64,000 nt of DNA from Candidatus Nomurabacteria bacterium (lineage in GTDB: Bacteria > Patescibacteriota > Minisyncoccia > Phycocordibacterales > UBA9973), in NCBI GenBank assembly GCA_026396015.1, contig JAPLXP010000003.1, positions 105,810 through 169,809 of the forward strand. The letters are read 5' to 3'. Both the position numbers and the translations under genes were made by a program. This document shows positions 22,998-55,195 of the stretch, piece after piece; within the stretch, counting starts at the first letter, position 1, and each line of letters begins with the position of its first letter. The notes below the pieces were generated by a model that did not search any database, was not told the DNA's origin, and saw nothing but the letters and a program-made list of their open reading frames with translations.

Positions 22998-22998
22998 T

Positions 22999-24511: not shown

Positions 24512-24553
24512 TATTTTTATACCTTTTTAAAATTAAAATGCTATAATAAATTT

Positions 24554-25363
24554 ATGTCTACACTCGCATATTTTTTTATTTTTTGTTTTGGTACCATTAT
24601 CGGAAGTTTTCTCAATGTAGTTATCTATCGTTTTAATAGTGGCAAGACTCTAGGGGGTAGGTCCATGTGTATGACATGTAGCAAGACACTGGCATGGTAT
24701 GAGTTAATACCAGTATTTTCTTATTTGTTCCAAGTTGGTAAATGTCGTTCTTGTTCTACTCGCATATCACACCAGTATCCACTGGTTGAATTATTCACAG
24801 GTGTAGTATTTACAATGATTGCGTATCATTTTTATGACATTGTCTTTGTCTCATTCAATCAGTATATATTGCTCGTATCAGTATACATGATGATATTTTC
24901 TCTACTATTGGTCATCTCTGTGTACGATATGCGTCACAAGGTGATTCCAGATCCGCTCGTTTTTGCTTTTATCGTATTTAGTTTTTTTACAATGTTCATC
25001 AGTAGTGTTCCTTTTGGCAATTTATTCGTGCAGCCTAGCATGTCTGCATTTTTGGCTGGACCGCTATACGCTCTACCATTTGCATTGATATGGTTATTGT
25101 CTCGCGGAAGATTTATGGGGCTAGGAGATGCAAAATTAATTCTTGGTATTGGTTGGATGTTCGGTATAGTCCAGGGTGGGGCAGCATTGATGTTGTCTTT
25201 TTGGATTGGTACTATTGTCAGTCTGCTGATTATATTTTTTAGTAAAATGAAATTCTCTATGAATACAGAGATTCCTTTTGGTCCGTTTTTGGCAATCAGC
25301 ACACTCATAGTATTTTTCTTTTCTTTAAATGTATTTGATTTAGCTTCTATCTTTAGTTTTTAA
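24554..25363 (+). CDS. pilD: prepilin peptidase PilD (A24 family)
   Basis: N-terminal tetracysteine CMTC...CRSC, 7-8 TM, catalytic Asp context. Confidence 0.8.
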   Translation: MSTLAYFFIFCFGTIIGSFLNVVIYRFNSGKTLGGRSMCMTCSKTLAWYELIPVFSYLFQVGKCRSCSTRISHQYPLVELFTGVVFTMIAYHFYDIVFVSFNQYILLVSVYMMIFSLLLVISVYDMRHKVIPDPLVFAFIVFSFFTMFISSVPFGNLFVQPSMSAFLAGPLYALPFALIWLLSRGRFMGLGDAKLILGIGWMFGIVQGGAALMLSFWIGTIVSLLIIFFSKMKFSMNTEIPFGPFLAISTLIVFFFSLNVFDLASIFSF

Positions 25364-25366
25364 AAA

Positions 25367-26704: not shown

Positions 26705-26707
26705 TTT

Positions 26708-27283
26708 ATGTCAGAAAAATATTTTAAAAAAAATAATGGTTTTACCTTGATTGAAATAATGGTTTCAATGTCTATTTTTATGATAGTTGTGTTGATGGCA
26801 TTGGGGGCATTGCTTGTGGTGAGTGGTACTGCAAAAAAGTCACGAGCACTACATCAAACTATGGACAATATAAATTTTGCTATGGAGAGTATGACAAGAT
26901 CATTACGAACAGGTACAGATTATAGTTGTATTGATTCTGGAGACTATGTCATATTGCCTCTATCTTATACAGCAGATTGTTCTTTTGGTGGTGATGCTAT
27001 TGCCTTTAGACCTCAAAATAGTAGCTCATCAGATACGATGTATTTGTTTGATCACGATAAATCTGTTTTGAAAAAGTGTACTATTTCTGGGTGTGTAAAT
27101 ATGACATCACCAAATGTGGTAGTAGATGATTTGAAATTCTTTGTAAAAGGAACTGGTTCATCTTTTTTGGGTGATTATACTCAGCCAAGTGTTTTTATCC
27201 GGATGAGTGGGTATGTCATGAATGGTGAAAATAAAGAGCAATTTTATTTACAGACTATGGCTTCACAGCGTAGTGCAGAATAA
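26708..27283 (+). CDS. minor pilin / pseudopilin (leader KKNNG|FTLIEIMV)
   Basis: Class III signal peptide motif. Confidence 0.6.
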   Translation: MSEKYFKKNNGFTLIEIMVSMSIFMIVVLMALGALLVVSGTAKKSRALHQTMDNINFAMESMTRSLRTGTDYSCIDSGDYVILPLSYTADCSFGGDAIAFRPQNSSSSDTMYLFDHDKSVLKKCTISGCVNMTSPNVVVDDLKFFVKGTGSSFLGDYTQPSVFIRMSGYVMNGENKEQFYLQTMASQRSAE

Positions 27284-35869: not shown

Positions 35870-36556
35870 ATGATTTATTTTGATAATGTAACAAAACAAT
35901 ATACAGACACAGATACAGAACCGTCACTAGAAGGGGTGACGTTTTCTATTGCCCCTGGTGAATTCGTGACTATTGTAGGTCACTCTGGTGCAGGCAAGAC
36001 TACCTTGGCAAAATTGATCATAGCAGAGGAGAAGCCGACTGTTGGTAAAGTGTCTTTTCAGTCTGTTGATATTCATAAATTATCTAATTCAGGCCTGACT
36101 GAACTTCGACGCAAGATTGGAGTAGTTTTCCAAGATTTTAGATTGATTGCAAACAAGACTTCTTTTGAGAATATCGCTTTTGCTATGGAGGCACTAGGCA
36201 AGGATGATGACGAGATAGCATCAGATGTGATGCATGTATTGTCATTGGTCAACTTAGACAACAGATCTTTGCATTTTCCGCATCAACTGTCAGGTGGAGA
36301 AAAGCAGCGTCTAGCTATCGCTCGTGCCATCATCAATCAGCCAGAAATTATCATCGCAGATGAGCCGACTGGCAATCTTGATCCTATAAGTGCAGGGGAG
36401 ATAGTAAATATCTTGAAGAGAATCAATAGCTTGGGTACCACTATCATTTTAACTACTCACAATAAAACCGTCGTGGACTCTCTAGGGAAGCGTGTAATTA
36501 CTCTAGAAAAAGGCCGAATCATCCGAGATGATAAGGAGGGTAAGTATGTGATATAA
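35870..36556 (+). CDS. ftsE: cell division ABC ATPase FtsE
   Basis: Walker A GHSGAGKTT, signature LSGGEKQR, followed by ftsX. Confidence 0.8.
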   Translation: MIYFDNVTKQYTDTDTEPSLEGVTFSIAPGEFVTIVGHSGAGKTTLAKLIIAEEKPTVGKVSFQSVDIHKLSNSGLTELRRKIGVVFQDFRLIANKTSFENIAFAMEALGKDDDEIASDVMHVLSLVNLDNRSLHFPHQLSGGEKQRLAIARAIINQPEIIIADEPTGNLDPISAGEIVNILKRINSLGTTIILTTHNKTVVDSLGKRVITLEKGRIIRDDKEGKYVI

Positions 36557-37490: not shown

Positions 37491-39179
37491 ATGAAAAAGT
37501 CTCAAAATAAACCTTCCCAAAAAGAAAAGGAGTTGTCTTCATGTAAGTATATTTTCGTAGTCGGTGGTGTGATCTCTGGTGTAGGAAAGGGTATAGCAGC
37601 ATCATCTATCGCACGTATACTGCAAGATCGTGGCCAGATTGTCACAGCTATAAAAATAGACCCATATATAAATATTGATGCGGGTACGATGAATCCTACT
37701 GAGCATGGGGAGGTGTTTGTGACAAATAGTGGTGATGAATGTGATCAGGATATGGGTAATTATGAGAGATTTTTAAATATAAATTTAGAACATATAAATT
37801 ACATGACTACTGGTCGTGTGTATCAGAGTGTGATTAATCGTGAGAGAAACCTAGGGTATGGTGGTGCTTGTGTTCAAGTGGTACCGCACATTCCTCTAGA
37901 AGTAATCAGTCGCATAGAAGCTGCTCGCGACAATGTAGGTGCAAATGTGGTAGTCGTTGAGATTGGTGGAACTGTCGGTGAATATGAAAATATATTATTC
38001 CTTGAAGCCGCAAGAATGCTTAAGATAAAGCACCCAAGAGATGTATTCTTTGTGATGGTATCGTATCTACCTATACCTTCAAAGGTGGGCGAGATGAAGA
38101 CAAAGCCTACTCAGCATGCTGTGCGTACACTCAATGCTTCAGGTATTCAGCCAGATATTATTATTGCTCGCAGTAATCAACCTTTAGATGAAAAACGTAA
38201 AGAGAAATTATCTATGTTTTGTAATATTTCTCCTGAGCGTGTAATCTCTGCTCCGGATGTCGATAGTGTATATGATATACCTATAAATTTTGAAAAGGAG
38301 GGTCTTGGCGACATGATCTGTGATGTAGTAGCTATGAAATGTGATCCATCTGATAACCCAGGATCTCGTGCATGGAAGAAATTTGTAAAATCTACACACA
38401 ATACAAAAGGTGAGGTTCGTATAGCTGTAATTGGTAAATATTTTGATACAGGAGATTTTACTTTTTCAGATTCCTATTTATCTGTTATTGAAGCTTTAAA
38501 ATATTCTGCATATGCTGTGGGTCGCAAGCCAGTATTGACTTGGCTTTCATCTACTACTTTTGAGAAAGATCCGAATAAATTAAAAGAACTTTCTCAGTAT
38601 GATGGGATCATTGTACCAGGTGGATTCGGTACTCGTGGAGTAGAGGGTATTCTAAAAGTTATAGAATACGCTCGAAATAAAAAGATTCCATACTTTGGGT
38701 TGTGTTATGGTATGCAACTACTCGTGATTGAGTATGCTCGAAATGTACTTGGATTTAAAGATGCTCACACACGTGAAGTAAATCCAAAATCTACTAACAT
38801 AATAATTGATATTATGGAGAGTCAAAAAGAAAACGTTGCAATGAAGAGAATGGGAGGTAGTATGAGATTGGGTGCCTACACAGCAATTTTGAAAAAAGGG
38901 ACAGTAGCAGAAAAGGCATACAAGAAGCCACAGGTAGAAGAGCGTCATCGTCATCGCTACGAGGTGAACAATGCCTATGTAGAGCAATTAGAAAAAGCTG
39001 GATTGGTATTCTCTGGAAAATCTCCAGATGGACATCTCTGTGAAATCGCAGAATTGCCTGGTAAGGATCATCCATTCTTCCTGGGTACTCAATTCCACCC
39101 AGAATTCCTAGCAAGACCACTTTCTCCTCATCCATTATTCACTGCATTCCTCAAAGCTTGTATCAAGAAAGATAAATAA
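37491..39179 (+). CDS. pyrG: CTP synthase
   Basis: N-terminal synthetase domain KYIFVVGGVISGVGKGIAASS, C-terminal GATase with GLCYGMQL and His/Glu. Confidence 0.9.
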   Translation: MKKSQNKPSQKEKELSSCKYIFVVGGVISGVGKGIAASSIARILQDRGQIVTAIKIDPYINIDAGTMNPTEHGEVFVTNSGDECDQDMGNYERFLNINLEHINYMTTGRVYQSVINRERNLGYGGACVQVVPHIPLEVISRIEAARDNVGANVVVVEIGGTVGEYENILFLEAARMLKIKHPRDVFFVMVSYLPIPSKVGEMKTKPTQHAVRTLNASGIQPDIIIARSNQPLDEKRKEKLSMFCNISPERVISAPDVDSVYDIPINFEKEGLGDMICDVVAMKCDPSDNPGSRAWKKFVKSTHNTKGEVRIAVIGKYFDTGDFTFSDSYLSVIEALKYSAYAVGRKPVLTWLSSTTFEKDPNKLKELSQYDGIIVPGGFGTRGVEGILKVIEYARNKKIPYFGLCYGMQLLVIEYARNVLGFKDAHTREVNPKSTNIIIDIMESQKENVAMKRMGGSMRLGAYTAILKKGTVAEKAYKKPQVEERHRHRYEVNNAYVEQLEKAGLVFSGKSPDGHLCEIAELPGKDHPFFLGTQFHPEFLARPLSPHPLFTAFLKACIKKDK

Positions 39180-39185
39180 ATAAAA

Positions 39186-39220
39186 TAAAAACCATCACGA
39201 ATGTGATGGTTTTTATTTTG
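39186..39220. terminator. bidirectional terminator ccatcac-gaa-tgtgatgg + T tracts
   Basis: Between pyrG (+) and the LOG-family gene (-). Confidence 0.6.
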
Positions 39221-39222
39221 TG

Positions 39223-39948
39223 TTATTTCAATTCTCCTAGACCAGGCTTACTTTGTTTGATTATATTTACTATCTCATTTACATCGTCTGTAATAGTGTA
39301 CAGGCTCAATTCTTGAGTGGTAATAGTATTATATTTTTCTAGCATTGTCTGCTGTATTGCAAGTTGGAATGGTGCCCAGAATTCTTTTCCTACTAGTATG
39401 ATCGGTACATCAGATATCTTCTTTGTCTGCTTTAGTGTGAGGACTTCGAATAATTCATCAAATGTTCCAAATCCACCAGGGAAGAATAAGCAGGCTTCTG
39501 TTGTGTATGACATTGATACTTTTCTTGTAAAGAAAAAATAAAATGGAATAGAATCAGTCACATATTTGTTTGTCTTTTGATCGTGGGGGAGTTTGATTGT
39601 TAGACCCACTGATCTTCCTCCTGCTTCGTATGCACCACGATTGGCTGCCTCCATTATGCCACCACCACCACCTGAAAGAATTGATACACCCGTCTCCTCA
39701 ACTATACGCTTGGCAATCATTTGTGCTTGTTTATAACTAGGATCATCCTCGGGTAGTCTTGCTGATCCATAAAATGTGACTGACGGACTAAAAGATTGAA
39801 TCATTTCTATTCCTTGTCTGAACTCCTCTTGAACCATACAGAGCTTTGTCTCCTCGTTATCTTCTCCGTATAGGGTCATACAACCGTCACGGATATCTTC
39901 AACTGTTAAATGTTTTGGCCTAAAGGCTTGTTTTTTTTCTTCACTCAT
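39223..39948 (-). CDS. LOG family protein (TIGR00730; cytokinin riboside 5'-monophosphate phosphoribohydrolase-like)
   Basis: GGGGGIMEAANRGA and PGGFGTFDELFE motifs. Confidence 0.8.
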   Translation of the reverse strand: MSEEKKQAFRPKHLTVEDIRDGCMTLYGEDNEETKLCMVQEEFRQGIEMIQSFSPSVTFYGSARLPEDDPSYKQAQMIAKRIVEETGVSILSGGGGGIMEAANRGAYEAGGRSVGLTIKLPHDQKTNKYVTDSIPFYFFFTRKVSMSYTTEACLFFPGGFGTFDELFEVLTLKQTKKISDVPIILVGKEFWAPFQLAIQQTMLEKYNTITTQELSLYTITDDVNEIVNIIKQSKPGLGELK

Positions 39949-40044
39949 TCCTATATGATACTCTGCTGTACCATATTTTTCAATTGTTTTTTATCTATTT
40001 TGTGGTAATATATGCCTATTACCATTTTGTAAATTGGTAAATAT

Positions 40045-40115
40045 TGCTAGATCGTCTAATGGTAGGACAACGGTTTCTGGTACCGTTTATCTAGGTTCGA
40101 GTCCTAGTCTAGCAA
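40045..40115 (+). tRNA. tRNA-Gln (CUG)
   Basis: U1-A72 acceptor TGCTAGA/TCTAGCA as in bacterial tRNA-Gln, anticodon stem-loop ACGGT-TTCTGGT-ACCGT, T arm CTAGG-TTCGAGT-CCTAG. Confidence 0.7.
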
Positions 40116-40276
40116 CAAAAAATAGCGCAGCGGTTTTTGCTGCTAGAAACAAGACAACTGCTTGTCTTGTGGCTAGGACAAGAAGACCTTTTCCTTATGA
40201 GTGTAATCACGAATGGAAAAGTGTGTACTGAATCTGTAAGGTTTGAGAGGTGTAATCACGGTCCTAGTCTAGCAGC
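40116..40276 (+). other. tRNA-Gln-associated structured element (B). Hairpin, tRNA-5'-like TGCTAGA, a 9-bp hairpin, GGCTAGGACAAG, the conserved GAAGACCTTTTCCTTA...GGAAAAGT, then a 14-nt direct repeat of the tRNA-Gln 3' end followed by GCCA
   Basis: gtcctagtctagca at 40261 repeats 40102-40115. The gtgtaatcacg direct repeat appears twice. Motifs are shared with element A. Confidence 0.5.
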
Positions 40277-40601
40277 CAACTCGTGTTAGCTCAAAGATAG
40301 AGCTAATTAGGAAAATTTATACTTAAACTGCATACCTGCTGATATCTTACTTTGGAAATATAATTGGTGAATATGCAGTATTCTTAATCCCAATCTCTTT
40401 GGAACGTGGTATAACTAGTACTCAACCAATATTCACGCTTTTGTTTGCTATTATTTTTTTAAAAAAAGCACCAGGTTCATTTAAAGAATCTATTGATTTT
40501 TATTCGTTATGTAAAAAGATAACAATCTTTATTTTTGTAATTGTTGGAATAATATTGATTACTTGGTAGGATTATTTATTATTGTATTTTATAATGATTA
40601 T

Positions 40602-41069
40602 ATGGTGGATATTATAATTCGCAAATTAAAAAATACTGATATTGATATAATTTCTTTTTTGGTTAATAAATTTAGCCATGAATGGATAATTCCAGAAAAA
40701 GAAATTAAAGAAGAATTTGTCGATGCTTCTTTTTTGGGAAGTTTTCCTTATATTTTTATTGCTGTAGCTGAAAATGGTGAATTTGTGGGTGATATTATTT
40801 TGTCTATAGAGAAGGACTGGTTTTTAGGTATTGATAATGAGGTTTGGATTAGTGGGGTTTTTGTTGTGGAAAAGTATCGTAACCAGGGTATAGCAAGAAA
40901 GCTCATTTCTCAGGCTGAATCTGTAGTGCTTGAATGTGGATATAAAAATTTATATTTAGATACGATACATGCATCTGGGTATTATCAAAAAATCGGTGGA
41001 TGGGTGGAAATAGGAAAAGATACATGGAAAGATGAAGAAGTTATTATAATGAAAAAAGAGCTTTTATAA
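40602..41069 (+). CDS. GNAT family N-acetyltransferase (ORF-track TTG start 40563; likely ATG 40602)
   Basis: Motif A VVEKYRNQGIARKLI. Confidence 0.65.
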   Translation: MVDIIIRKLKNTDIDIISFLVNKFSHEWIIPEKEIKEEFVDASFLGSFPYIFIAVAENGEFVGDIILSIEKDWFLGIDNEVWISGVFVVEKYRNQGIARKLISQAESVVLECGYKNLYLDTIHASGYYQKIGGWVEIGKDTWKDEEVIIMKKELL

Positions 41070-41074
41070 AATAT

Positions 41075-41245
41075 ATGGATTCAAAAAAGATAATTTTAAT
41101 ATGTACGATGGTTGGTTCATTCTTGGGTAGTATTATTCCCGAGCTATGGGGTGACAGTATGATGTCTATGACATCTATATTACTCACGGCTGTCGGTGGG
41201 GCGCTGGGTATCTATATAGGATACAAAATAAGTCAAAATTACTAA
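41075..41245 (+). CDS. 56-aa two-TM micro-protein (not in ORF track)
   Basis: MDSKKIILICTMVGSFLGSIIPELWGDSMMSMTSILLTAVGGALGIYIGYKISQNY, followed by hairpin agcttgca...tgcaagct + T tract. Confidence 0.3.
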   Translation: MDSKKIILICTMVGSFLGSIIPELWGDSMMSMTSILLTAVGGALGIYIGYKISQNY

Positions 41246-41249
41246 TAAA

Positions 41250-41282
41250 AAAGCTTGCAACAATAATGCTGCAAGCTATTTT
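41250..41282. terminator. bidirectional terminator agcttgca-acaataatgc-tgcaagct
   Basis: 8-bp stem between converging genes. Confidence 0.5.
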
Positions 41283-41669
41283 TTAATTTATGACAGTCGC
41301 TGTAGCAAAGCTACTTTCTGTCTCATGTAATTTTATTTCTGTGACTCTACCGTCACCAAATTTTTCTGATTCTAGCATAACAAGTATTTGTAGCGCTAAG
41401 TTTTCAGCAGTTGTCGGTAAATCACCAAATATATTATTTAAATTTTTGTGATCAAATTTGTCAACCACTAATTCTTTCACAATTTTTTTAATGTCACCAT
41501 AATCCACAATCATTCCTTTTTTAGGACCTGATTTTTGTGTTTCTCCTGTTATCGTTACATATAGTATGTAATTATGACCGTGATTTTCTTTACACTTACC
41601 GTCATGATTAGGTAGTGAGTGTGATGCCGAAAAGGTAAACCTTTTGGTGATTGATAGTTGTATACCCAT
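41283..41669 (-). CDS. queD: 6-carboxy-5,6,7,8-tetrahydropterin synthase QueD (PTPS family)
   Basis: 128 aa, SASHSLPNHDGKCKENHGHNY (Cys-x5-HGH zinc site). Confidence 0.8.
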   Translation of the reverse strand: MGIQLSITKRFTFSASHSLPNHDGKCKENHGHNYILYVTITGETQKSGPKKGMIVDYGDIKKIVKELVVDKFDHKNLNNIFGDLPTTAENLALQILVMLESEKFGDGRVTEIKLHETESSFATATVIN

Positions 41670-41679
41670 AATATTAAAG

Positions 41680-41730
41680 ATTAGTTTTTTGTTTATCTTA
41701 CAATCTACACAATATTTGTCAATTATATGC
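41680..41730 (-). promoter_or_regulatory. candidate preQ1-I-like riboswitch tail in the queD leader (low confidence)
   Basis: Minus-strand leader ...ttgtgtagattgtaagataaacAAAAAACTAAtctttaatatt-ATG contains the preQ1-I A-rich tail AAAAAACUAA and an upstream loop with UAG. The P1 stem is weak. Confidence 0.2.
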
Positions 41731-41786
41731 TTTTTGTGTTTATGCTATAATTTGTCTACAAAATTATTATTAATAAATTTATTTAA

Positions 41787-42200
41787 ATGAAAAAAATTCA
41801 TGAATTGGTTCATAAATTCAATAATCCAAATCTTGGAATATTGTTTATCCGTATCGCTTTAGGAGTAGTATTTATCAGTGAAGGTTGGACAAAGATAAGT
41901 CATATCGAATATGTAGCAGGATTTTTTGGTGTAATCGGTATTCCTGTATTCTTGGCATATTTTGTTTCATATTTTGAATTTGTAGCTGGTATATTATTGA
42001 TTTGTGGAGTATTTGTCAGATACGTAGGAATAATACTATCAGCTATAATGTTAGTTGCTATTGCAAAGGTTCATTTTGTTCATGGTTTTAATGTACAGAA
42101 TGGTGGATACGAATACGTCTATGTATTGTTGCTATCAGCAATGTCTCTCGTTACTTTTGGTTCTGGGCCTTACTCTGTAAAAAAGTTTTTGAATAAATAA
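41787..42200 (+). CDS. DoxX family membrane protein
   Basis: LGILFIRIALGVVFISEGWTKI DoxX signature, 4 TM, 137 aa. Confidence 0.7.
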   Translation: MKKIHELVHKFNNPNLGILFIRIALGVVFISEGWTKISHIEYVAGFFGVIGIPVFLAYFVSYFEFVAGILLICGVFVRYVGIILSAIMLVAIAKVHFVHGFNVQNGGYEYVYVLLLSAMSLVTFGSGPYSVKKFLNK

Positions 42201-42210
42201 TTTTACTAAT

Positions 42211-42242
42211 AAAAAAAACGATGCATATGCATCGTTTTTTTA
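42211..42242. terminator. bidirectional terminator acgatgca-ta-tgcatcgt flanked by A/T tracts
   Basis: Between DoxX (+) and the CDF gene (-). Confidence 0.6.
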
Positions 42243-43247
42243 TTAGTTTATCTCTATGTCTACGTATAAGATTTCTGGAAATTTTTCACGCATTCTTTTT
42301 TCTATTTCATCAATATGATTACCTACTAGGCGGGGGATACGGTCTGTTGTCTTGAACATGAGTTTTGTGAATTCTTTAAAGCTGTCTTTTATCTTGTTGA
42401 ATTCTTCTTTTAAATCTCCTGCACCGTATATCTCTTCATATAGTGGTGAACCATTCCACTCCACTGTCGCATATATTCTGTATTTATTTATATCTACTGC
42501 TACTGATTTAAAATCAAGTACTGTTTCAACGCATGGATCTTCCTGTAGAAATTCTAGAATTTCTTCTTTGAGTTCTTCGCTTATTGATTTGCCTATGATG
42601 TATTGATAATTTTTTCTTATCAATATTATTGCCAAGAATCCCAATATTAGACCAACAATAATACCTCCTATGCCATCATATATACTATTGCCTGTCAGAT
42701 AGAGTAAGGATTGTGAGACAAGAGCTATGAGTACTCCGAGTACTGCTGCTCCGTCTTCGTATACTACAGCTAGTGTTACAGGGTCGGCATCTTCAAATAT
42801 TTCTTTTGACAATTCTCGTTCACCACGTAGTTCTTTGAGTGCTACAAGTAATGTGAATCCTTCAATAAAAAAGGCAATAACTAGAACCACAACACTGAGA
42901 TAATTAAAGGAATGTATCATCTCATCATGGCTAAGTAGTGAGTCGATTGAATGGTATACAGTGACCCCAGCACCAATGAATAAAATTCCGCAAGCTGATA
43001 TTAGAGACCAGAAAAATCTTTCAATGCCATATCCATATCCCCGAATGTGATCTGCTGGTTTCTGTGATCTTTTTAGTCCTATATATAATAGTGCTTGGTT
43101 AAGTGTGTCAGCTATACTATGTACACTCTCTGCGAACATACTCGCAGATCCTGAGACTACTGCTATTATTGTTTTAATTATAGATACTATTATATTCCCG
43201 GACAATGCTGTTAATACTGATTTACTGCCTTGCGCTTTGTGTGTCAT
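42243..43247 (-). CDS. cation diffusion facilitator (CDF) family metal efflux transporter
   Basis: 6 TM + cytoplasmic C-terminal domain. HSIADTLNQ and DHIRGYGYGIERF motifs. Confidence 0.75.
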   Translation of the reverse strand: MTHKAQGSKSVLTALSGNIIVSIIKTIIAVVSGSASMFAESVHSIADTLNQALLYIGLKRSQKPADHIRGYGYGIERFFWSLISACGILFIGAGVTVYHSIDSLLSHDEMIHSFNYLSVVVLVIAFFIEGFTLLVALKELRGERELSKEIFEDADPVTLAVVYEDGAAVLGVLIALVSQSLLYLTGNSIYDGIGGIIVGLILGFLAIILIRKNYQYIIGKSISEELKEEILEFLQEDPCVETVLDFKSVAVDINKYRIYATVEWNGSPLYEEIYGAGDLKEEFNKIKDSFKEFTKLMFKTTDRIPRLVGNHIDEIEKRMREKFPEILYVDIEIN

Positions 43248-43302
43248 TTTTTGATTATAACATACAAAATGACCCCTTATTAGGGGTCATTTAATTCAAA
43301 TG

Positions 43303-43662
43303 CTATATTCCAAAATCAGAAGTTATGCTGTTATTTATTGATTTAACTGCAGCATTATACTGAATATATCCTACATAACACAATATTACAAAAGATATTC
43401 CCATTAATGCACAAGCGATGAATCCTATTTGTTTAGTTTTTTCATCTTTTGATTTTAAATACTTGATGCCATCCCATTTCCCAATCGTAAAAAATCCTAT
43501 CCATGGCAAAACGATACTATAAATATAAAGTTTTGTTTGTTCCGCAGGATTTGTTGATAGGGGAGAATCTTGAACTTTTGTTCCACAATTTGGGCAAAAG
43601 TAATATTCTGGTTTTAGTATCTGATGGCACATCGCACACAATTTAGTTTCAGTATTTTCCAT
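43303..43662 (-). CDS. zinc-ribbon membrane protein (CxxC...CxxC then 2 TM); likely ATG at 43662
   Basis: CAMCHQILKPEYYFCPNCGTKV. Confidence 0.5.
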   Translation of the reverse strand: MENTETKLCAMCHQILKPEYYFCPNCGTKVQDSPLSTNPAEQTKLYIYSIVLPWIGFFTIGKWDGIKYLKSKDEKTKQIGFIACALMGISFVILCYVGYIQYNAAVKSINNSITSDFGI

Positions 43663-43663
43663 A

Positions 43664-45595
43664 TTATTTTTCAATTCCGCGAATGAGTACTTTTAATAAT
43701 GATTCCAATCCCATAGTGGCCACTCCTGTGACTTTATCACCTCCTCCATAATACAAGTAGAGTATTCCTTTATCTTCCACTACACCACAAGGGAATACTA
43801 CATTGTTAACGATACCATTTTTTTCATAATCCATTTCTGGTTCGAATATTGGGTCAGTGGTACGAGCTAAAACTAGAGCTGGATCTTTTTTATCAAGGAG
43901 TACTGCTCCTACTCTGTATGTACTGTGACTCTTGGATACTCCGTGGTATATTAGCAGCCATCCGTATTTTGTGTTGATTGGAGGTGATGCTATCCCTACT
44001 TTTAATCCATCCCATTTATTTTGTCTTGGGCCAAATATTTGAATACACTTGTTAACTTTTTCTTTTTCAAAATTCAGACTGTGTAGATAGTCCCCGCAAA
44101 CTTGATTACCCACACGATGAATGACTAGATATCCGTCCTTGAATTTTTCAGGGAATATACATGCATCCTTGTCATCAAATCCACTAGGTGTAATCAGTGA
44201 TGGTTTGTCCCATTTCCAATTGTGCGCAAGAAAATTTTTTTCAGTAATTGATGTTATTGCTACACGAGGTACATTGATACTGTCATATGCTGTATAGCAC
44301 ATGTAAATATTTTTACCGATTTGTGTCACTCTTGGATCTTCACAACCAGAATTTCCATTTGTTATTTTTTTGCTCTCAAAATCCTCACGTGGAAGATATA
44401 TTGGCTCAGGTGACCTGTAATCAATTTTTACTCCATTTTTTGTACTTGCATATCCTATATATGATGTATTGTCATTTGAAAATGATCTGTACATTATGTG
44501 TGTAGTTCCGCCTATTCTAATAGCAGCAGGATTGAATGTCGCCTTGGATTCCCATAGATGATCCTCGATGGGGGAGATTATTGGATTTTCCTTCCATCTT
44601 TTAAATGTATATACTCCTGCAGTTTCAGGTCTGATTGTGTTGATCAAATCTGTAATATTTACTTTTGCCTTACACACAGTAGTATCTGCTGCGCCGTAGT
44701 AAATACTTAGGACATCACCCTCGAGTAGTGCACCACTAGGGAATACTATATTACCAATATGACCGGTGAGTTCATAGACTTCACTCGGTACTAGTATAGG
44801 ACCTTTTGTCCTTCCGATTATTTTTCTTGGATCTTTTAGATCGAGTAGTAATACTTCGACTCCGAAAATACGATCTAAGTGTTCATTGCTCTCAAAATAA
44901 TTTTGAATATGAGAATAAATTAAAAGCCATCCGTACTTTGTTTTTATTGGAGTAGCACCTATCTCTACGTGGTCACTCTTTGTCCTACGTGGGTCTATTG
45001 TGTGTTCGTCTATTTCTGCATACCACTTTTCCCAAAATTCAGGATTCCAAAAATCTTCAACATTTTTGGATTGTGCGATGGCTATCTGTGAAGGTGGTAG
45101 GTCTGTGTGTACTGTCAGTATCAGTGTTGCTTTTCCATTTATGCGCTCCGGAAAAAGAGTAGCTGCTTTAGCGTTAAAAGGTGTCACTAGATGGCGCTCA
45201 GTTACATTTTTTAAATCCTTAGATATTCCTACTGCTACTTTAATATTCTCGTGTGAAAAAGGGAAGCCGCCCAATGCAGTATAAAAAGTATAATATTTAC
45301 CTTCAAATTTTGTCACGCGTGGATCTTCACACCCGTATTTTTCCCAATCCTCTACAGGAACGATGAATTGCTCATGCTCCTCAAAGTGAGTACCATCCTT
45401 GCCGCGCCCGATACCTACCACAGAAGTTTGTTCTGGGTTACGCATTTTGTCTACCGCAGAAATCGCTCGATATATACCATAATAATTTTTACCTTCTTTG
45501 ATAGGAGATAAATTAAATACAGCACCAGCTTCCCAGTAGTGATCTTTGTTTGGGACAAGTATTGGATTATGTGAAGATCTTTTTACGACGTACAT
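43664..45595 (-). CDS. tandem two-domain GH130/DUF377-like glycoside phosphorylase (beta-mannoside phosphorylase family)
   Basis: Two repeats of the NPIL...W(E)..(A)(T)FNP(A/S)... 5-bladed propeller pattern. 643 aa. Confidence 0.55.
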   Translation of the reverse strand: MYVVKRSSHNPILVPNKDHYWEAGAVFNLSPIKEGKNYYGIYRAISAVDKMRNPEQTSVVGIGRGKDGTHFEEHEQFIVPVEDWEKYGCEDPRVTKFEGKYYTFYTALGGFPFSHENIKVAVGISKDLKNVTERHLVTPFNAKAATLFPERINGKATLILTVHTDLPPSQIAIAQSKNVEDFWNPEFWEKWYAEIDEHTIDPRRTKSDHVEIGATPIKTKYGWLLIYSHIQNYFESNEHLDRIFGVEVLLLDLKDPRKIIGRTKGPILVPSEVYELTGHIGNIVFPSGALLEGDVLSIYYGAADTTVCKAKVNITDLINTIRPETAGVYTFKRWKENPIISPIEDHLWESKATFNPAAIRIGGTTHIMYRSFSNDNTSYIGYASTKNGVKIDYRSPEPIYLPREDFESKKITNGNSGCEDPRVTQIGKNIYMCYTAYDSINVPRVAITSITEKNFLAHNWKWDKPSLITPSGFDDKDACIFPEKFKDGYLVIHRVGNQVCGDYLHSLNFEKEKVNKCIQIFGPRQNKWDGLKVGIASPPINTKYGWLLIYHGVSKSHSTYRVGAVLLDKKDPALVLARTTDPIFEPEMDYEKNGIVNNVVFPCGVVEDKGILYLYYGGGDKVTGVATMGLESLLKVLIRGIEK

Positions 45596-45598
45596 ATA

Positions 45599-46759
45599 TT
45601 ATTTTTTTGTTTTAATTTTAGTTGTTAATTTTAATGCTTTATCGTGCATTAATTCCTCTAGGAATAAATCAAGATTTGCTTTTGCTACACATGTGACCAT
45701 ATCTCCGCCGCCATAATATATGAATAATTCTTTATCTTTCACCACTGCACCACATGAGTATACTATTCCTGGCTTACCTTCATTCTCGTAATGTTCTTCT
45801 GGTTCTAGTATTGGATCTTTGGATTTGTGGAGTATCAAAGTGGGATCTTTTTTGTCGAGCAGCATGGCATGGAGATTGTATTTAGATGAATCCTTTTGAT
45901 TGTTCGTATGATAGATCACTAGCCATCCGTACTTTGTCTTGATAGGGGCGGGGCCTATGCCTCGCATATTTCTATCTCGCATTTTCCATAGTGGGTGATC
46001 CTGGTGAATGCTATGGATAAAAGTCTTACCATTGAATTCATTCAAATTGTCACTATAGTAGATCATAATCTCTGGAGATATTGCATGGATAATTGCATAC
46101 TTACCATTTATTTTCTCTGGGAAAAGAACCCAATTTTTCTGTACTTCACCTGGCATAGATATCAATACAGGCTCTTTCCAATTAAAATTTTTATTCACAA
46201 AATCTTTAACTTTTATATGCGTCATTCCAATACGAACAGAACCCCATCCATCAAATGCTGTATACATCATATAGATGTTGTCTTCTATGAGGGTCATTCT
46301 TGGGTCCTCGCATCCACCATCTCCACCACCACCAGAAATATAGTCTAATTTTTTTAGACTTTTATTCTTGTTTGTGGAGTGTTTGTATATGGGCATCGAT
46401 AATCGCTCAGTGATATGCAATCCATCTTTTGTTTTTGCATAACCCAATACTGAAGTATCACCGATTCCTATCGCACGATATACTATATGTATATGTCCAT
46501 CATGGTAAATTGCACTTGGATTGAATGTGGCTCCAGATTCCCAATTGGGATAATGACTAGGTTTTAATATTGGATTATTATAGGATCTTTTTAACGTAAT
46601 TTTTTTTGCTATCTGTATTTTATCATTTTTGGTTGCGGATGACTTTTTAATCACTTTTAATTTGCCCACAGTTTTTTTCTTTGGTGTTTTTTTAATCTTT
46701 GATATGGTCTTCAATTTTTTGATGATTGGAGCTTTTGTTTTTTTAATTTTCTCTACCAT
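45599..46759 (-). CDS. GH130/DUF377-like glycoside phosphorylase with Lys-rich N-terminal tail
   Basis: RSYNNPILKPSHYPNWESGATFNPSAIYHDGHIHIVYRAIG. N-terminal about 55 aa KKTK...KKK low complexity. Confidence 0.55.
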   Translation of the reverse strand: MVEKIKKTKAPIIKKLKTISKIKKTPKKKTVGKLKVIKKSSATKNDKIQIAKKITLKRSYNNPILKPSHYPNWESGATFNPSAIYHDGHIHIVYRAIGIGDTSVLGYAKTKDGLHITERLSMPIYKHSTNKNKSLKKLDYISGGGGDGGCEDPRMTLIEDNIYMMYTAFDGWGSVRIGMTHIKVKDFVNKNFNWKEPVLISMPGEVQKNWVLFPEKINGKYAIIHAISPEIMIYYSDNLNEFNGKTFIHSIHQDHPLWKMRDRNMRGIGPAPIKTKYGWLVIYHTNNQKDSSKYNLHAMLLDKKDPTLILHKSKDPILEPEEHYENEGKPGIVYSCGAVVKDKELFIYYGGGDMVTCVAKANLDLFLEELMHDKALKLTTKIKTKK

Positions 46760-47087
46760 ATTTATCCTCTAATCTAACTATATCTGACTCATCAAAATTA
46801 CCATGAGCAATCTCAAGGAATTTTACATCTTCATTCGTAGCTTCTATTCTGTGGGGGACTGTATTATCTATTGTGAATTCATCATTCTGCTGGGCTTGAA
46901 TCTTTTCAGTGCCAATAGTTACTATAGGATTGCCTTCTATAATTTTCCAGAATTCTGATCTATTTTTATGGTATTGGAGACTTAATGATTCTCCTTTGTT
47001 TATGTAAATTATCTTTACTGTAGTAGGTTCGTTTAGTGTGTATTGTTCAAATTTTCCCCAAGGTTTTTGTGTTGTTGTGGTTTTCAT
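46743..47087 (-). CDS. type II phosphomannose isomerase cupin-domain protein
   Basis: WGKFEQYT...SLQYHKNRSEFWKIIEG...VPHRIEA...DIVRLEDKYGR matches the PMI type-II C-terminal cupin pattern. Confidence 0.6.
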   Translation of the reverse strand: MKTTTTQKPWGKFEQYTLNEPTTVKIIYINKGESLSLQYHKNRSEFWKIIEGNPIVTIGTEKIQAQQNDEFTIDNTVPHRIEATNEDVKFLEIAHGNFDESDIVRLEDKYGREN

Positions 47088-47088
47088 T

Positions 47089-47853
47089 TTAGATTAGTTT
47101 TATTAATACATTAATTGTATCATTTGGGTTAGATACTGAAATACAATCTACTCCAGAATTTACAGCTGGATGATCATTACCTCCAATTTGTAATTTGTCT
47201 CCCATAAATATTATATCAGATTTATTTATGTCCAGATAACTTATTAATTTATTTATTGCATATTCTTTGTCTACTCCTGATCTAGTCACATCTATTGTAT
47301 TTGTTCCTCCAAAATTTATAGAGAATTCAGGTATAAGAGGGAGCATGACATCTCTAACTTTTTTTCTTTTTTCTTGATCGGGGTCCCATGTGGACTTCAC
47401 AGAAAATGGTGCATCTTGTCCACAAGCTGAAAATGACATCTGAGTTCCACGGTCCTCAATGACTTGTCCATATGAAGGTGTCGGTAATATTGTATTTGTT
47501 TCTTTTATTGATTTCTCCCAGGCTGCGACAATCTTATCTTTATCTTCTTGGTTTAAGAGTTCTTCGTATTCACATATCCATTGATTGTCTTTGTATACAT
47601 AAAGGGAGCTGCCTGTAGTAGGGAATAATATTAGATTACTAAAAAAATCAGATTCATCATTTGTGAATGTATCTATAACTTGTTTTTTGAATTGAGTGTA
47701 GGAACCCCCAGATATTATTGCTATTTTGTATTTTTTAAGTAGTTTAGATAATACTTCAGACATCTTTGGGTTAATAGGTGATTTACTCTCGGCTAGTGTT
47801 CCATCTAGGTCAAAAGCTATAACTTTTTTATTGTTAAAAATATTATTATTCAT
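47089..47853 (-). CDS. HAD-superfamily phosphomannomutase (eukaryotic-type PMM, PF03332-like)
   Basis: IAFDLDGTLAE DxDGT motif. FGGTNTIDVTRSGVDKEYAI...FMGDKLQIGGNDHPA...VSNPNDT parallels the PMM GDK..GGND and P.DT motifs. Confidence 0.6.
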   Translation of the reverse strand: MNNNIFNNKKVIAFDLDGTLAESKSPINPKMSEVLSKLLKKYKIAIISGGSYTQFKKQVIDTFTNDESDFFSNLILFPTTGSSLYVYKDNQWICEYEELLNQEDKDKIVAAWEKSIKETNTILPTPSYGQVIEDRGTQMSFSACGQDAPFSVKSTWDPDQEKRKKVRDVMLPLIPEFSINFGGTNTIDVTRSGVDKEYAINKLISYLDINKSDIIFMGDKLQIGGNDHPAVNSGVDCISVSNPNDTINVLIKLI

Positions 47854-47937
47854 ATATAGATTATATAATAATAAGATTCTCTACACTATAGGCATAATAG
47901 TTAGACTTCTTTTGGGTTCTGTATTATAGTGTCATAT

Positions 47938-48693
47938 ATGGCAAAACAAGAAAAAATCTATATATATGGCAAGCACGCACTTGTCGAGGCTCTTACTAAT
48001 TCACCAACAGCTGTAAAGAAAGTATTCTTGGCTCGTGAAGACGATAAAGAGTTGGTTCATCTGATCAAAAAAGCAGGTATTACAATATCTCAGCTAGGTA
48101 AGGGTGAGGGGGTAGGTGATGTGTCTAATGATAGCAAGCACCAGGGAGTTATCGGTCTGTTGTCTCTAGATAAAATAATCCAACCATATGAAAGATTTAT
48201 GAATAGTCTAGTTGTGAATCCAAATACTTGCATCATCATTCTTGGAGAATTGGAGGACCCTCAAAATGTTGGATCTATTATTCGTACTGCTGCAGCTATG
48301 GGTATAGCTGGTGTATTGATACCAGAACACAACCAGGCTCCTATCACAGGCTCAGTCGTAAAAGTTTCTGCTGGTATGGTGTTCCGCGTACCTGTAGTCC
48401 AAATCGGTAATATCAACAATGTCATTCGTGATCTAAAAGAAAAAGGATTTTGGATTTACGGATTAGATGGTGAATCAAAGCAATCATTAAATGATGAATC
48501 TTTTGATACTCCGACAGCATTTATCATAGGTAACGAGGCTCGTGGTATAAGAGAGAAGACTCGTGAACTCTGCGATATCATGCTCCGCATTCCAATGCAT
48601 CCACAATGTGAATCTATGAATGCTGCTGTATCTACGGCCATCGCCATGTACTCATGGAGTGCAAAGCATCCTGATTCTGTAAAAGGTAAATAA
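47938..48693 (+). CDS. TrmH/SpoU-family RNA 2'-O-methyltransferase (RlmB-like); ORF-track GTG start 47929
   Basis: N-terminal substrate-binding domain + SpoU methylase motifs (GLDGESKQ, IIGNEARGI, IPMHPQCESMNAAVSTAIAMY). Confidence 0.75.
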   Translation: MAKQEKIYIYGKHALVEALTNSPTAVKKVFLAREDDKELVHLIKKAGITISQLGKGEGVGDVSNDSKHQGVIGLLSLDKIIQPYERFMNSLVVNPNTCIIILGELEDPQNVGSIIRTAAAMGIAGVLIPEHNQAPITGSVVKVSAGMVFRVPVVQIGNINNVIRDLKEKGFWIYGLDGESKQSLNDESFDTPTAFIIGNEARGIREKTRELCDIMLRIPMHPQCESMNAAVSTAIAMYSWSAKHPDSVKGK

Positions 48694-48737: not shown

Positions 48738-49223
48738 TTAGTTAGTTTTTAGGTCGTGCCCAAATTTATTTTTAACATGCTGTCCTATTGCCATAGGTTT
48801 TCTATTGGCATTGGTCCAGGTGTCGACATTCGTAGCGATGGCTGTATGGTTCACTTGGTCTATCGTACCTGTGATCATCACACCCTGTCCGACTACAAGA
48901 TTGGTGATAGATCCAACCACGTTGTCCTTTTTAAAGATTGTCGTACTTGTTGTGTTAATAATAAATTGTGGTTTTGTTGTATTGGATTTTTTGTCGAAGC
49001 TTTTTGTTTCAATTGTAAAACTATTTCCATTTATTGCAGTAATTGTACCTGCAACATGATTTGATATTTTATTTATTTTTGGAACTGAACTTTTATGCAT
49101 TTGCCTTGCGTCTTTGTTCGTATCTGTACGCATTGAAGCAAATGAAATATTTGCAGAAGTTATTGTTATAATTATGATGGCTGTTCCACCTATTTTAATC
49201 AATATATTTCTTTTTTTACTCAT
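48738..49223 (-). CDS. secreted/membrane-anchored hypothetical protein
   Basis: Signal/TM ILIKIGGTAIIIITITSANISFA, Thr/Asn-rich mature part. Confidence 0.45.
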   Translation of the reverse strand: MSKKRNILIKIGGTAIIIITITSANISFASMRTDTNKDARQMHKSSVPKINKISNHVAGTITAINGNSFTIETKSFDKKSNTTKPQFIINTTSTTIFKKDNVVGSITNLVVGQGVMITGTIDQVNHTAIATNVDTWTNANRKPMAIGQHVKNKFGHDLKTN

Positions 49224-52682: not shown

Positions 52683-53363
52683 ATGATTGAAATTAAAAAT
52701 ATTACAAAAAAATATCAAAGTGGTAAGGAGCCATTCCTGGCTTTAAAAGGTGTCAGTTTTATTATTGAGGATGGGGAGTTTGTCGCTATAACTGGTCCAT
52801 CTGGGTCTGGTAAGTCCACTTTGATGCATATTCTCGGTGCACTCGATAATCCTACTTCCGGTACATATTTTTTGGATGGAAAGGATGTGTCTACTCTGTC
52901 TGATGACGAATTGGCAAATATAAGAAAAAATAAAATTGGTTTTGTCTTTCAATCTTTCAATCTACTTCCTCGTACTACAGTAATAAGAAATGTATCGTTG
53001 CCTCTTGTGTACGCTGGTGTAGAAGAAAAAGAAAGAATTCGAAGAGCTGAAGAAGCTTTAATCTCTGCTGGTCTTGATCGCGAGCACTTCACTCATTTAT
53101 CAAATGAATTATCTGGTGGGCAAATACAACGCGTAGCTATCGCTCGTGCACTCGTGAACAATCCTACATTGATACTAGCTGATGAGCCTACCGGTAATCT
53201 TGATTCAAAAACGGGGGATATAGTATTGGGAACTTTTCAAAGATTGAATCGTGAACATGGTCGTACTATTATACTCATCACACACGAGCCAGATGTAGCA
53301 GCACATGCTGACCGCATTATTCACATAAAAGACGGATTGGTTCTAAGTGATAAGAAAAAATAA
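52683..53363 (+). CDS. ABC transporter ATP-binding protein (MacB/LolD type)
   Basis: Walker [11 protein letters not shown]-loop, signature LSGGQIQR, Walker [13 protein letters not shown]-loop. Confidence 0.85.
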
Positions 53364-54736: not shown

Positions 54737-55195
54737 ATGAAAAACATAAAACACGAACATTTTTTAATAATTTTAATTGCAGTATTTTTGATCGGCGGCG
54801 GTATTGGATTTTTTGCAGGAAAGGGAATCACAAATAAAAATTTACAAAATCCTCAATCTGGATTTGCAAATCGTGGGGGTCAGGGCGGAATGATGGGTGG
54901 GGGTAATCGTGGAGGTCAAGGTAGTGGTATGATGCGCGGTAGTGGATTCGCAAGTGGCGAAGTCTCATCTGTCGATACAAATAGTATCGTAGTTCGGATG
55001 CGTGATGGATCTTCAAAAATTGTGCTGTACGCACCATCTACAGAAATCGGTAAATTCACTACTGGAGTATTGTCTGATGTTGTAGTAGGTAAACAGATAA
55101 TGGTAAATGGCACAGCAAACAGTGATGGATCTGTGACTGCTACAAATATCCAAATTCGCCCGAACATGCCAATTGGAAAACCCGCAAAACAATAA
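54737..55195 (+). CDS. membrane-anchored Gly/Met-rich protein (hypothetical)
   Basis: N-terminal TM. GGQGGMMGGGNRGGQGSGMMRG low-complexity stretch. Confidence 0.4.
   Translation: MKNIKHEHFLIILIAVFLIGGGIGFFAGKGITNKNLQNPQSGFANRGGQGGMMGGGNRGGQGSGMMRGSGFASGEVSSVDTNSIVVRMRDGSSKIVLYAPSTEIGKFTTGVLSDVVVGKQIMVNGTANSDGSVTATNIQIRPNMPIGKPAKQ

Follow-up and report, generated by a model that had tools for sequence, protein, structure and literature searches.

A conserved gene cluster of Candidatus Nomurabacteria joins three GH130 domains with predicted beta-1,2-mannoside specificity to a phosphomannose isomerase and a phosphohexomutase

The closest described relatives of the enzymes discussed here are Teth514_1788 and Teth514_1789 of Thermoanaerobacter sp. 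X-514, two GH130_6 proteins that act as 1,2-beta-oligomannan and beta-1,2-mannobiose phosphorylases and are encoded by adjacent genes. Their cluster also carries a mannose-1-phosphate (Man-1-P) guanylyltransferase, an ABC importer, a GH5 and a GT4. A second system of interest is the mannogen cycle of Leishmania, in which GT108 proteins (MTP1-7), comprising strict mannosyltransferases and bifunctional transferase/phosphorylases, handle a beta-1,2-mannan in the cytosol. Here, we describe an operon in a 64 kb stretch of a Candidatus Nomurabacteria genome (Candidate Phyla Radiation, CPR; Patescibacteria); this stretch is the window of the text below, and the gene absences given for it refer to it only. 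On the minus strand of the window, two adjacent genes encode three GH130 domains, one in a single-domain protein with a polybasic tail (S-type) and two in a tandem protein (N- and C-domain), together with genes for a cupin of the phosphomannose isomerase (PMI) type and a HAD protein of the phosphomannomutase (PMM) type.

The E/K signature and the short loop past the phosphate-binding Arg position are common to the Teth514 enzymes and the CPR domains, both systems have two neighboring GH130 genes, and a guanylyltransferase like that of the Thermoanaerobacter cluster occurs in some CPR relatives. The phosphate site is complete in both Teth514 enzymes but in just one of the three CPR domains; part of the CPR set is fused into a tandem protein and one product has a polybasic tail; and the importer, GH5 and GT4 are absent from the CPR cluster, which has a PMI and a HAD-type PMM instead. 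With Leishmania, judged from the genes alone, the CPR set would have in common a group of paralogous, cytosolic five-bladed propellers acting on beta-1,2-mannan, in which some members have a full phosphate pocket and some are changed at the Arg "switch" position, and a tie to the pool of Man-1-P, GDP-mannose and hexose phosphates. The switch residue itself differs, being Ser, Ala or Thr in the CPR GH130 domains and His in the Leishmania GT108 enzymes. By analogy, then, the CPR arrangement would couple the chemistry of the Thermoanaerobacter pair to the logic of the Leishmania mannogen cycle while being a member of neither. What is new in the CPR are the tandem and triple architectures, two recurrent types of Arg-less site, a polybasic or transmembrane (TM) tether, and the context of PMI, PMM and split ManC. 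In the literature that we searched on GH130 in CPR, bacterial mannogen-like reserves and cultured Paceibacteria, nothing was found on the GH130 cluster itself; one Microgenomates genome paper lists in passing "two GH130 enzymes" without signal peptides. Public records name the GH130 proteins "hypothetical" or "glycosidase-related", and the tandem and S-type proteins of the window, which are 100% identical to NCBI NTX85_01410 and NTX85_01415, are both called "hypothetical protein".

Taken together, the predicted activities form a reversible, ATP-free chain that runs from fructose-6-phosphate (Fru-6-P) through mannose-6-phosphate (Man-6-P) and alpha-Man-1-P to a beta-1,2-mannoside. A first-pass annotation of this DNA had proposed a route from beta-mannosides to Man-1-P, Man-6-P and Fru-6-P; its chain is chemically coherent and survives, with the linkage changed from that of beta-1,4-mannan or N-glycans to beta-1,2. 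The four open reading frames (ORFs) on which it was built, the PMM, the PMI cupin, the GH130 protein with a Lys-rich tail and the 643-aa tandem protein, are confirmed on the minus strand, and its description of them as overlapping or abutting genes holds in that the first three junctions are a 1-nt gap (HAD/cupin), a 17-nt overlap (cupin/S-type) and a 3-nt gap (S-type/tandem). A fifth co-oriented ORF, which it had left out, overlaps the tandem gene by 11 nt, so that the five run from 47853 to 43303 with nearly no spacing. We hold the picture of the individual enzymes that follows with high confidence.

The S-type protein (386 aa; 45599-46759, minus strand) matches PF04041 at 1.8e-39 (136 bits, cut-off 26) and the tandem protein (643 aa; 43664-45595, minus strand) at 1.4e-98 (330 bits over two stretches, with the same cut-off). 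Searched domain by domain against the PDB, the S-type catalytic domain (45599..46591, minus) finds 9fj8, which is Teth514_1788, at 4.9e-50; the tandem N-domain (44621..45595, minus) finds 7fip at 1.3e-43; and the tandem C-domain (43664..44620, minus) finds 7fip at 6.5e-52 and 9fj8 at 1.3e-49. All three domains have Teth514_1788 (9FJ8) and Teth514_1789 (7FIP) as their nearest solved relatives, at E 1e-41 to 6e-52; Lin0857 and Uhgb_MS follow, and beta-1,4 enzymes match far more weakly. The 18 PDB matches at E <= 1e-3 for any domain are all GH130 or GH130-like, with no GT108 (MTP) entry among them. With the NCBIfam equivalog model for beta-1,2-mannobiose phosphorylase (NF052550, cut-off 450) the single-domain protein reaches 217.5 bits and the tandem protein, its two domains summed, 416.4 bits, both below the cut-off. 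At E values of about 1e-50 to solved GH130 structures the fold is secure from sequence alone, and the three domains resemble GH130_6 with beta-1,2 signatures and do not belong to GT108. Thus the three GH130-like domains of the first-pass annotation stand, as PF04041 matches with an intact catalytic Asp and not as GH43 or GH32.

The residues that hold mannose are preserved throughout. CEDPR, FN and GG(A/G)D motifs, which contain the catalytic Asp and the -1 subsite Asn/Asp, are found in all three domains, and each of these residues (the proton-donor Asp corresponding to UhgbMP D104 and Teth514_1788 D92) has at most one exception in the set of 119 tandem or of 120 single-domain homologues. Specificity for beta-1,2 linkages in GH130 is marked by a Glu, in place of Tyr103, beside the catalytic Asp and a Lys, in place of Arg150, in the +1 subsite (PMC4599007, PMC7660257). 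No exception to this Glu/Lys pair was seen in any of the three domain families, over 119 homologue clusters for the tandem protein and 120 for the single-domain protein. Since the signature is present in all three domains, the expected substrate is a beta-1,2-mannoside and not the beta-1,4-mannan or N-glycan core first proposed, and an assay with beta-1,4-mannobiose would probably be negative.

The three domains part company at the phosphate. GH130 phosphorylases are marked by a phosphate-binding Arg/His pair (R168/H231 of UhgbMP; PMC7660257 Table 2), and the R168 position corresponds to R202 of Uhgb_MS and to the "switch" residue of the Leishmania GT108 enzymes. Sites were mapped by HMMER alignments to structures, by MAFFT and by profile-profile alignment (hhalign). 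The tandem C-domain has D420, E419/K476, H493-R494, K532 (equivalent to R242) and Y550-H551, conserved over 119 homologues; R494 and H551 are each present in 119/119 and H493 in 118. It alone of the three domains is predicted to have a canonical beta-1,2-mannoside phosphorylase site. In the S-type protein the residue equivalent to R168 is Ala226, and over 120 homologue clusters this position is Ser in 78, Ala in 26, Gly in nine, Asn in six and Cys in one, with Arg in 0/120. The S-type keeps the catalytic Asp152 and the equivalents of His231 and Arg242, its invariant columns being N, R, E, D, K, R266, H284 and D353, and no conserved carboxylate was found in its phosphate pocket across the 120 clusters. 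The tandem N-domain has changed at every basic position: Thr161 stands for R168 (S/T/A in the family, by hhalign), Ser228 for H231 (117/119 homologues) and His209 for R242 (118/119), and an invariant Glu211 (119 homologues) lies two residues past His209, where Gly is otherwise conserved. The catalytic Glu-Asp and the beta-1,2 Lys are kept. A conserved V-H-T-D at 162-165 is also inserted in the N-domain, and we had considered Thr164-Asp165 as the replacement of the Arg or as a new carboxylate; this was rejected, since in the profile-profile alignment VHTD is an insertion and the Arg-equivalent is residue 161, so that only Glu211 is put forward as a candidate new carboxylate.

Because the catalytic Asp and the mannose-binding residues stay invariant, the S- and N-type sites appear to be altered rather than decayed. 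Of the three phosphorylase domains initially proposed, the C-domain, with R494 and H551, keeps the defining phosphate pair, and the S-type and N-domain are without its Arg. Several precedents bear on what these two domains might do. In Uhgb_MS, the R202A exchange cuts phosphorylase activity 16-fold and leaves no transferase activity, and with R202H the phosphorylase activity persists; in GT108, a His variant at the switch position accompanies strict transferases; and GH130 hydrolases have carboxylates in place of the basic phosphate-binding residues. A rule by which an Arg-less site means a transferase, by analogy with Leishmania MTP1/2, was dropped, given that the R202A variant is transferase-dead and the R202H variant is still a phosphorylase. 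The N-domain has in common with the GH130_3 beta-1,2-mannosidases (BT3780, BACOVA_03624) the Glu/Lys signature and the loss of basic phosphate binders, and its Glu211 would be a candidate pocket carboxylate like the catalytic base of BT3780 (E227/E268). At 1e-10 to 1e-17 the N-domain matches these hydrolases weakly, and less well than it matches the phosphorylases; it has no signal peptide. The S-type differs from the hydrolases in having no conserved carboxylate at all. The S- and N-type domains probably do something other than efficient phosphorolysis, be it priming, transfer, trimming or hydrolysis.

The remaining two enzymes supply the link to the hexose-phosphate pool. The HAD protein (254 aa; 47089-47853, minus strand) matches PF03332 (PMM) at 2.7e-11 (44.1 bits, cut-off 22.4) and PF08282 (Hydrolase_3) at 1.8e-14 (54.5 bits), and reaches 55.8 bits with TIGR00099 (Cof), under its cut-off of 137. 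Its top match in the PDB, nearly full length at residues 9-250, is 4BND, the alpha-phosphoglucomutase (alpha-PGM) PgmH of Lactococcus lactis, at E 1.5e-44; PMM1, PMM2 and Leishmania PMM follow at 1e-13 to 1e-9, so that the top matches are all mutases, and no significant match to a Cof-type phosphatase was found there. The protein carries the motifs FDLDGTL and GDKLQIGGNDHP, with the DxDGT nucleophile and GDxxxxGGND both present, and has in common with PgmH and PMM1/PMM2 the HAD-IIB mutase architecture. On these matches it is a HAD-IIB phosphohexomutase of the eukaryotic-PMM/Lactococcus alpha-PGM clade, as the grouping with PMM suggested at the outset had implied, and not a Cof-type enzyme. HAD-type PMMs are often bifunctional PMM/PGM enzymes, and the putative preference of this one for mannose is indicated by its gene context, next to GH130 and PMI genes, and by a PMM-GH130 fusion in one relative (L026).

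The cupin (114 aa; 46743-47087, minus strand) matches PF01050 at 5.3e-17 over profile positions 11-116 of 116, and its 62.5 bits against a cut-off of 23.6 bear out the earlier assignment to type II PMI. The PMI motifs PWG, SLSLQxHxxRxExW, PHR and DIVRxxDxYGR can be read in its translation, which ends ...DIVRLEDKYGREN. The C-terminal PMI domain and motifs of the bifunctional type II PMI-guanylyltransferases (AlgA/ManC/XanB; TIGR01479) are thus present, and the N-terminal guanylyltransferase domain is absent from the cupin, with no ManC or nucleotidyltransferase homologue found in the window. The cupin is accordingly classed as a stand-alone type II PMI domain with predicted PMI activity. It covers positions 359-467 of 467 of the TIGR01479 GMP_PMI model (65.9 bits, below the cut-off of 373), and a ManC-like gene of related genomes covers positions 4-348. 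Because the two proteins cover complementary parts of the model, they would be the halves of a split ManC/AlgA-type enzyme. Where AlgA, ManC and XanB are single proteins, the CPR have separate genes, the guanylyltransferase half lying a few genes away in relatives and the window having the cupin only.

Conservation among related genomes supports the view that these genes work together. We scanned one genome per species and recovered 39 loci, almost all from Patescibacteria. The counts below are for 30 non-redundant loci in which 3.5 kb or more of sequence precedes the tandem gene. For the tandem protein, over 100 clusters of full-length homologues were found in Nomurabacteria and Paceibacteria, with identities of 65-74%, and median identity to the window is 65% for the tandem protein, 42% for the S-type, 46% for the PMI and 40% for the PMM. 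An S-type gene lies upstream of the tandem gene in 30/30 loci, directly adjacent in nearly all, and the synteny anticipated for related genomes is thus borne out for the GH130 pair. A PMI cupin is near the tandem gene in 26 loci, a HAD-IIB gene in 15 (12 PMM-type, three Cof-like) and a nucleotidyltransferase in 15 (12 RfaE-II-like, three ManC-like). A DUF1361 membrane protein is nearby in eight, an MsbA/ChvA-type ABC exporter lies directly downstream of the tandem gene in eight, and an aldose-1-epimerase-like gene is near it in five. Gene order varies from genome to genome, and because it is shuffled in this way the linkage of the core genes would be functional and not merely inherited.

Fusions join components of the cluster physically: besides the PMM-GH130 fusion, one protein (P0241) has S-, N- and C-type domains in a single chain of 971 aa and another (P0296) has S- and C-type domains. 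N-type domains are also found on their own, in proteins of about 320-340 aa. The slot upstream of DUF1361 holds either a ManC-like guanylyltransferase of about 369 aa (L005, L007, L010, L022) or an RfaE-domain-II-like nucleotidyltransferase of about 155 aa (L009, L011, L018, L021, L039), an apparent non-orthologous displacement. Since the RfaE-II-like gene takes the same slot as the ManC-like gene within one sublineage, this suggests that its product also activates Man-1-P. A 488-kb contig that carries P0004, a 73%-identical tandem homologue, has CTP synthase and RlmB on either side of the cluster, as does the window (37491-48693). The order there is PMI-nucleotidyltransferase-PMM-GH130-tandem, against PMM-PMI-GH130-tandem and no nucleotidyltransferase in the window, which suggests that the region was rearranged locally and the nucleotidyltransferase gene lost or moved elsewhere.

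In L001, L006 and L023 (e.g. L001 4721-5476) the HAD between the nucleotidyltransferase and the PMI is Cof-like and without similarity to the window mutase, and the slot is, as these assignments indicate, taken by different subfamilies in different genomes. In two loci (L034 8926-11460 and L035 2637-5273) a PMM-type HAD directly downstream of the tandem gene is fused to a D-lactate-dehydrogenase-like, FAD-linked oxidase with FAD_binding_4 and FAD-oxidase_C domains, and the two chains measure 844 and 878 aa. Near the cluster in eight loci (L008, L009, L010, L011, L013, L015, L039, L042; e.g. L009 273-2081) there are Cys-rich proteins of about 570-600 aa, frequently with more than one copy in a locus, which gave no Pfam or NCBIfam match. 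CPR-type tandem GH130 genes were also seen on contigs labelled Woesearchaeota, Rickettsiales, Rhabdochlamydiaceae and Myxococcota (L025, L033, L041, L043), short contigs of 3-13 kb from metagenome-assembled genomes; a wider taxonomic distribution was not accepted on this basis, mis-binning seeming likelier than transfer.

The N-terminal tail of the S-type protein is of particular interest for the location of the system. It comprises 56 aa (46592..46759, minus strand) with 21 Lys/Arg and two Asp/Glu, and its ATG has a GAGGA Shine-Dalgarno sequence 5 nt upstream, within the end of the PMI gene. A tail of 30-111 aa is present in 120/120 homologue clusters, with a median Lys+Arg fraction of 0.42 and an acidic fraction of 0.02; composition is conserved and sequence is not. 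Comparably basic segments are found in only 2/72 ORFs of the window, the S-type included. In three more distant orthologues (L032, L034, L036) an N-terminal hydrophobic helix, with basic residues after it, takes the place of the tail, and these are predicted to be membrane-anchored with a cytoplasmic catalytic domain. Other lineages have a degenerate GH130-like domain or a PMM at this position: in L019, L024, L029, L030, L031 and L038 (e.g. L029 1021-2844) the S-position protein is 607-663 aa long, with an extra N-terminal degenerate GH130-like domain (PF04041 at 1.2e-8 in L029, and at 1.9e-4, below the gathering score, in L019) and no polybasic tail. The canonical His-Arg motif is kept in L019, L029, L030 and L031 and lost in L024 and L038. 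Because three orthologues bear a TM helix where the tail would be, tethering to the inner face of the membrane via anionic lipids is more likely than the tether to nucleic acid or to the cell surface that had been suggested for it, and the tail may instead bind nucleic acid or polyphosphate.

In the explanation that we prefer, PMI and mutase would interconvert Fru-6-P, Man-6-P and Man-1-P, and a three-domain GH130 machine would then interconvert Man-1-P and beta-1,2-linked mannosides. The tandem C-domain, an inverting enzyme, would catalyze (Man-beta-1,2)n + Pi <-> (Man)n-1 + alpha-Man-1-P, where Pi is inorganic phosphate. The S- and N-domains, with mannose-binding and acid-catalyst residues kept and phosphate pockets remodelled, would contribute priming, transfer, trimming or hydrolysis, the S-type being fixed to the cytoplasmic side of the membrane by its polybasic tail. 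Net direction would be set by the ratio of Pi to hexose phosphate, and the cells would build and remobilise a beta-1,2-mannoside of their own, which could be a mannogen-like reserve or a mannan associated with the envelope. The sequences show the gene content, the families, the diagnostic residues and their conservation, the synteny and the fusions; from these we infer the substrates, the direction, the tether to the membrane and what the two non-canonical domains do. We judge this explanation as a whole, endogenous synthesis and turnover included, to have an even chance of being right, and the endogenous role of the mannoside to fall a little short of that. The endogenous role is suggested by the lack of an uptake system together with a PMI of biosynthetic type; by the NDP-mannose enzymes, membrane protein and exporter of relatives; by the placement of one enzyme at the membrane; and by the conservation of these genes, like that of core genes, across habitats without a known supply of beta-1,2-mannan.

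Several points weigh against this explanation. All of the protein assignments rest on sequence, and beta-1,2-mannan from CPR bacteria is not reported in the literature that we searched. The closest characterised relative of the HAD mutase is a phosphoglucomutase, and a PMM-type HAD is present in only 12/30 loci. The loss of transferase activity in Uhgb_MS R202A means that an Arg-less site is no evidence for a glycosyltransferase, and the linkage of the exporter and DUF1361 could be inherited synteny within one sublineage. Lastly, the nucleotidyltransferase, DUF1361 and exporter are missing from the window, where the only visible route is that through Man-1-P, which fits catabolism equally well.

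A bolder form of the same idea, which we put forward tentatively and do not lean towards, is that Paceibacteria and Nomurabacteria make and recycle a beta-1,2-mannan of their own with GH130 enzymes, as a counterpart of Leishmania mannogen or an analogue of cyclic beta-1,2-glucan. The latter is a beta-1,2 homopolymer made at the inner face of the inner membrane by the Cgs synthase, which has a GH94 phosphorylase domain, and is exported by an ABC transporter of the MsbA/ChvA type (ChvA/NdvA). The exporter of the CPR relatives, absent from the window, matches the glucan ABC transporter model at 2.9e-102 and scores slightly better as MsbA; the likeness is one of analogy only, as sugar, enzyme families and architecture differ. 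In this scheme the Arg-less, membrane-tethered GH130 would prime the chain or transfer mannose to it, with NDP-mannose from the RfaE-II-like enzyme of relatives as a possible donor, the N-domain would trim it, and the C-domain would elongate or phosphorolyse it according to the balance of Pi and hexose phosphate. Such a polymer, if it exists, would give minimal cells an ATP-free buffer of carbohydrate and phosphate, or an envelope polymer.

The strongest alternative is catabolic salvage, in which beta-1,2-mannooligosaccharides from a host, a partner or the environment would be converted in the cytoplasm to Man-1-P and, by PMM and PMI, to Fru-6-P with no expenditure of ATP, the non-canonical domains taking odd linkages or the last disaccharide. 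A canonical C-domain and a PMM/PMI pair do make a complete route, the Thermoanaerobacter beta-1,2 pair has been interpreted as salvage in the literature, CPR bacteria are thought to ferment sugars freed by glycoside hydrolases, and among relatives a PFK gene adjoins the PMI gene in L027 and an iPGM gene comes after the tandem gene in L003; the content of the window, with neither an NDP-mannose enzyme nor DUF1361 nor the exporter, is likewise in its favor. The first-pass annotation had in fact assumed uptake of host or partner glycans, of which we see no sign. None of the four enzymes (mutase, cupin and the two GH130 proteins) has a signal peptide or TM segment, and no importer, solute-binding protein or secreted glycosidase was found within about 10 kb on either side in the window or among the recurrent neighbor families of 41 related loci, unlike the Thermoanaerobacter cluster with its ABC importer and GH5. 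Furthermore, beta-1,2-mannans are environmentally rare, yet nearly all Paceibacteria, from many habitats, have these genes in highly conserved form; the PMI is of the biosynthetic ManC type; and relatives have added nucleotidyltransferases and an exporter-type ABC protein. On balance we consider salvage somewhat unlikely.

The cluster might instead serve mainly to supply activated mannose, as Man-1-P or NDP-mannose, with which lipids or surface proteins would be glycosylated, for instance by the GT2-GtrA genes at 20.6-24 kb, with the GH130 enzymes as a buffer or recycling shunt. A comparable role has been proposed for Teth514_1785-1796, half of the loci (15/30) have a ManC- or RfaE-II-like nucleotidyltransferase, and a GT2, a GtrA and a large unassigned membrane protein are encoded in the window; yet the nucleotidyltransferase is absent from the other half and from the window, whereas the three GH130 domains are always there and are the most conserved part, so that we think this role improbable. 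Least probable, and by a good measure doubtful, is that the two Arg-less domains are non-catalytic binding, scaffolding or regulatory modules that present beta-1,2-mannan to the single active phosphorylase domain, for although residues needed to bind phosphate are lost and some lineages fuse a further, clearly degenerate GH130-like domain to the S-type, the catalytic Asp, adjacent Glu, -1 Asn/Asp and +1 Arg/Lys are invariant (119 and 120 homologues) and the replacement residues Glu211, His209 and Thr164-Asp165 are likewise invariant, as in a changed site and not a decayed one.

The operon is probably central to CPR carbon handling, given that these tiny genomes retain the unit in related loci and that the tandem protein is about 65% identical across genera. 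Natural GH130 sites that have lost the phosphate-binding Arg in two ways, under strong selection, bear on the debate over phosphorylase, transferase and hydrolase activity in GH130 and GT108, and an endogenous beta-1,2-mannoside may be possible in bacteria. A polybasic tail that is interchangeable with a TM helix would also be a way to place a soluble carbohydrate-active enzyme at the membrane. Even if the system serves salvage only, its expected substrate is corrected from beta-1,4 to beta-1,2.

The fifth gene of the operon (43303-43674, minus strand) encodes a 123-aa protein with weak Zn-ribbon Pfam matches (8.4e-5) and a TM-like segment at residues 80-106. Because no homologue was detectable in the related loci, we keep it out of the pathway. 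A terminator-like hairpin (43267-43292, minus strand), with an 11-bp stem and a T-rich tail, closes the operon. At its other end a divergent spacer of 75 nt (47854-47928) separates the PMM gene from rlmB and contains, read by eye, a perfect TATAAT at 47865-47860 (minus), 6 nt ahead of the PMM ATG; from this position the mRNA may be leaderless or short-leadered. A consensus promoter scan did not report this TATAAT, and with 29 promoter-like sites in the region against 27.6 in shuffles, no excess, the scan supports no promoter call.

The operon lies among housekeeping genes, which encode on one side a CDF transporter, DoxX, a QueD-like protein, a GNAT protein, LOG, CTP synthase, FtsEX and RF2, and on the opposite side RlmB, an ECF sigma factor and a MacAB-like pump, with an NAD-dependent DNA ligase farther off. 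When the nucleotidyltransferase, ManC, DUF1361, epimerase, ABC exporter and Cys-rich protein of relatives were searched against the window with tblastn, only generic ABC ATPase similarity was seen, namely to ABC_tran ORFs at 35870-36556, beside an FtsX-type permease, and 52683-53363, beside a MacB-type permease. Two small DUF5666-like proteins (48738-49223, minus strand, and 54737-55195, plus strand) flank the block of the sigma factor and pump, which consists of the ECF sigma factor, two unassigned small proteins, an HlyD-type protein, an ABC ATPase and a MacB/FtsX permease.

Farther away, in a stretch of 27% GC at 20-24 kb, the plus strand at 20606-23974 encodes a GT2 (235 aa), a 563-aa protein without a Pfam match, a methyltransferase and a GtrA-like protein. 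Together they resemble a glycosylation cassette of the polyprenyl-phosphate-sugar kind, which would need a nucleotide sugar, and three pilin-like genes and a prepilin peptidase (23999-27283) come after it. ARAGORN also identified a tRNA-Ser at 7971-8056 (plus strand; Rfam tRNA score 57.4 bits) with the anticodon ACT, that is, with A at position 34, which is seldom seen in bacteria; an ordinary tRNA-Ser(GCT) is close by, at 5834-5921 (minus strand).

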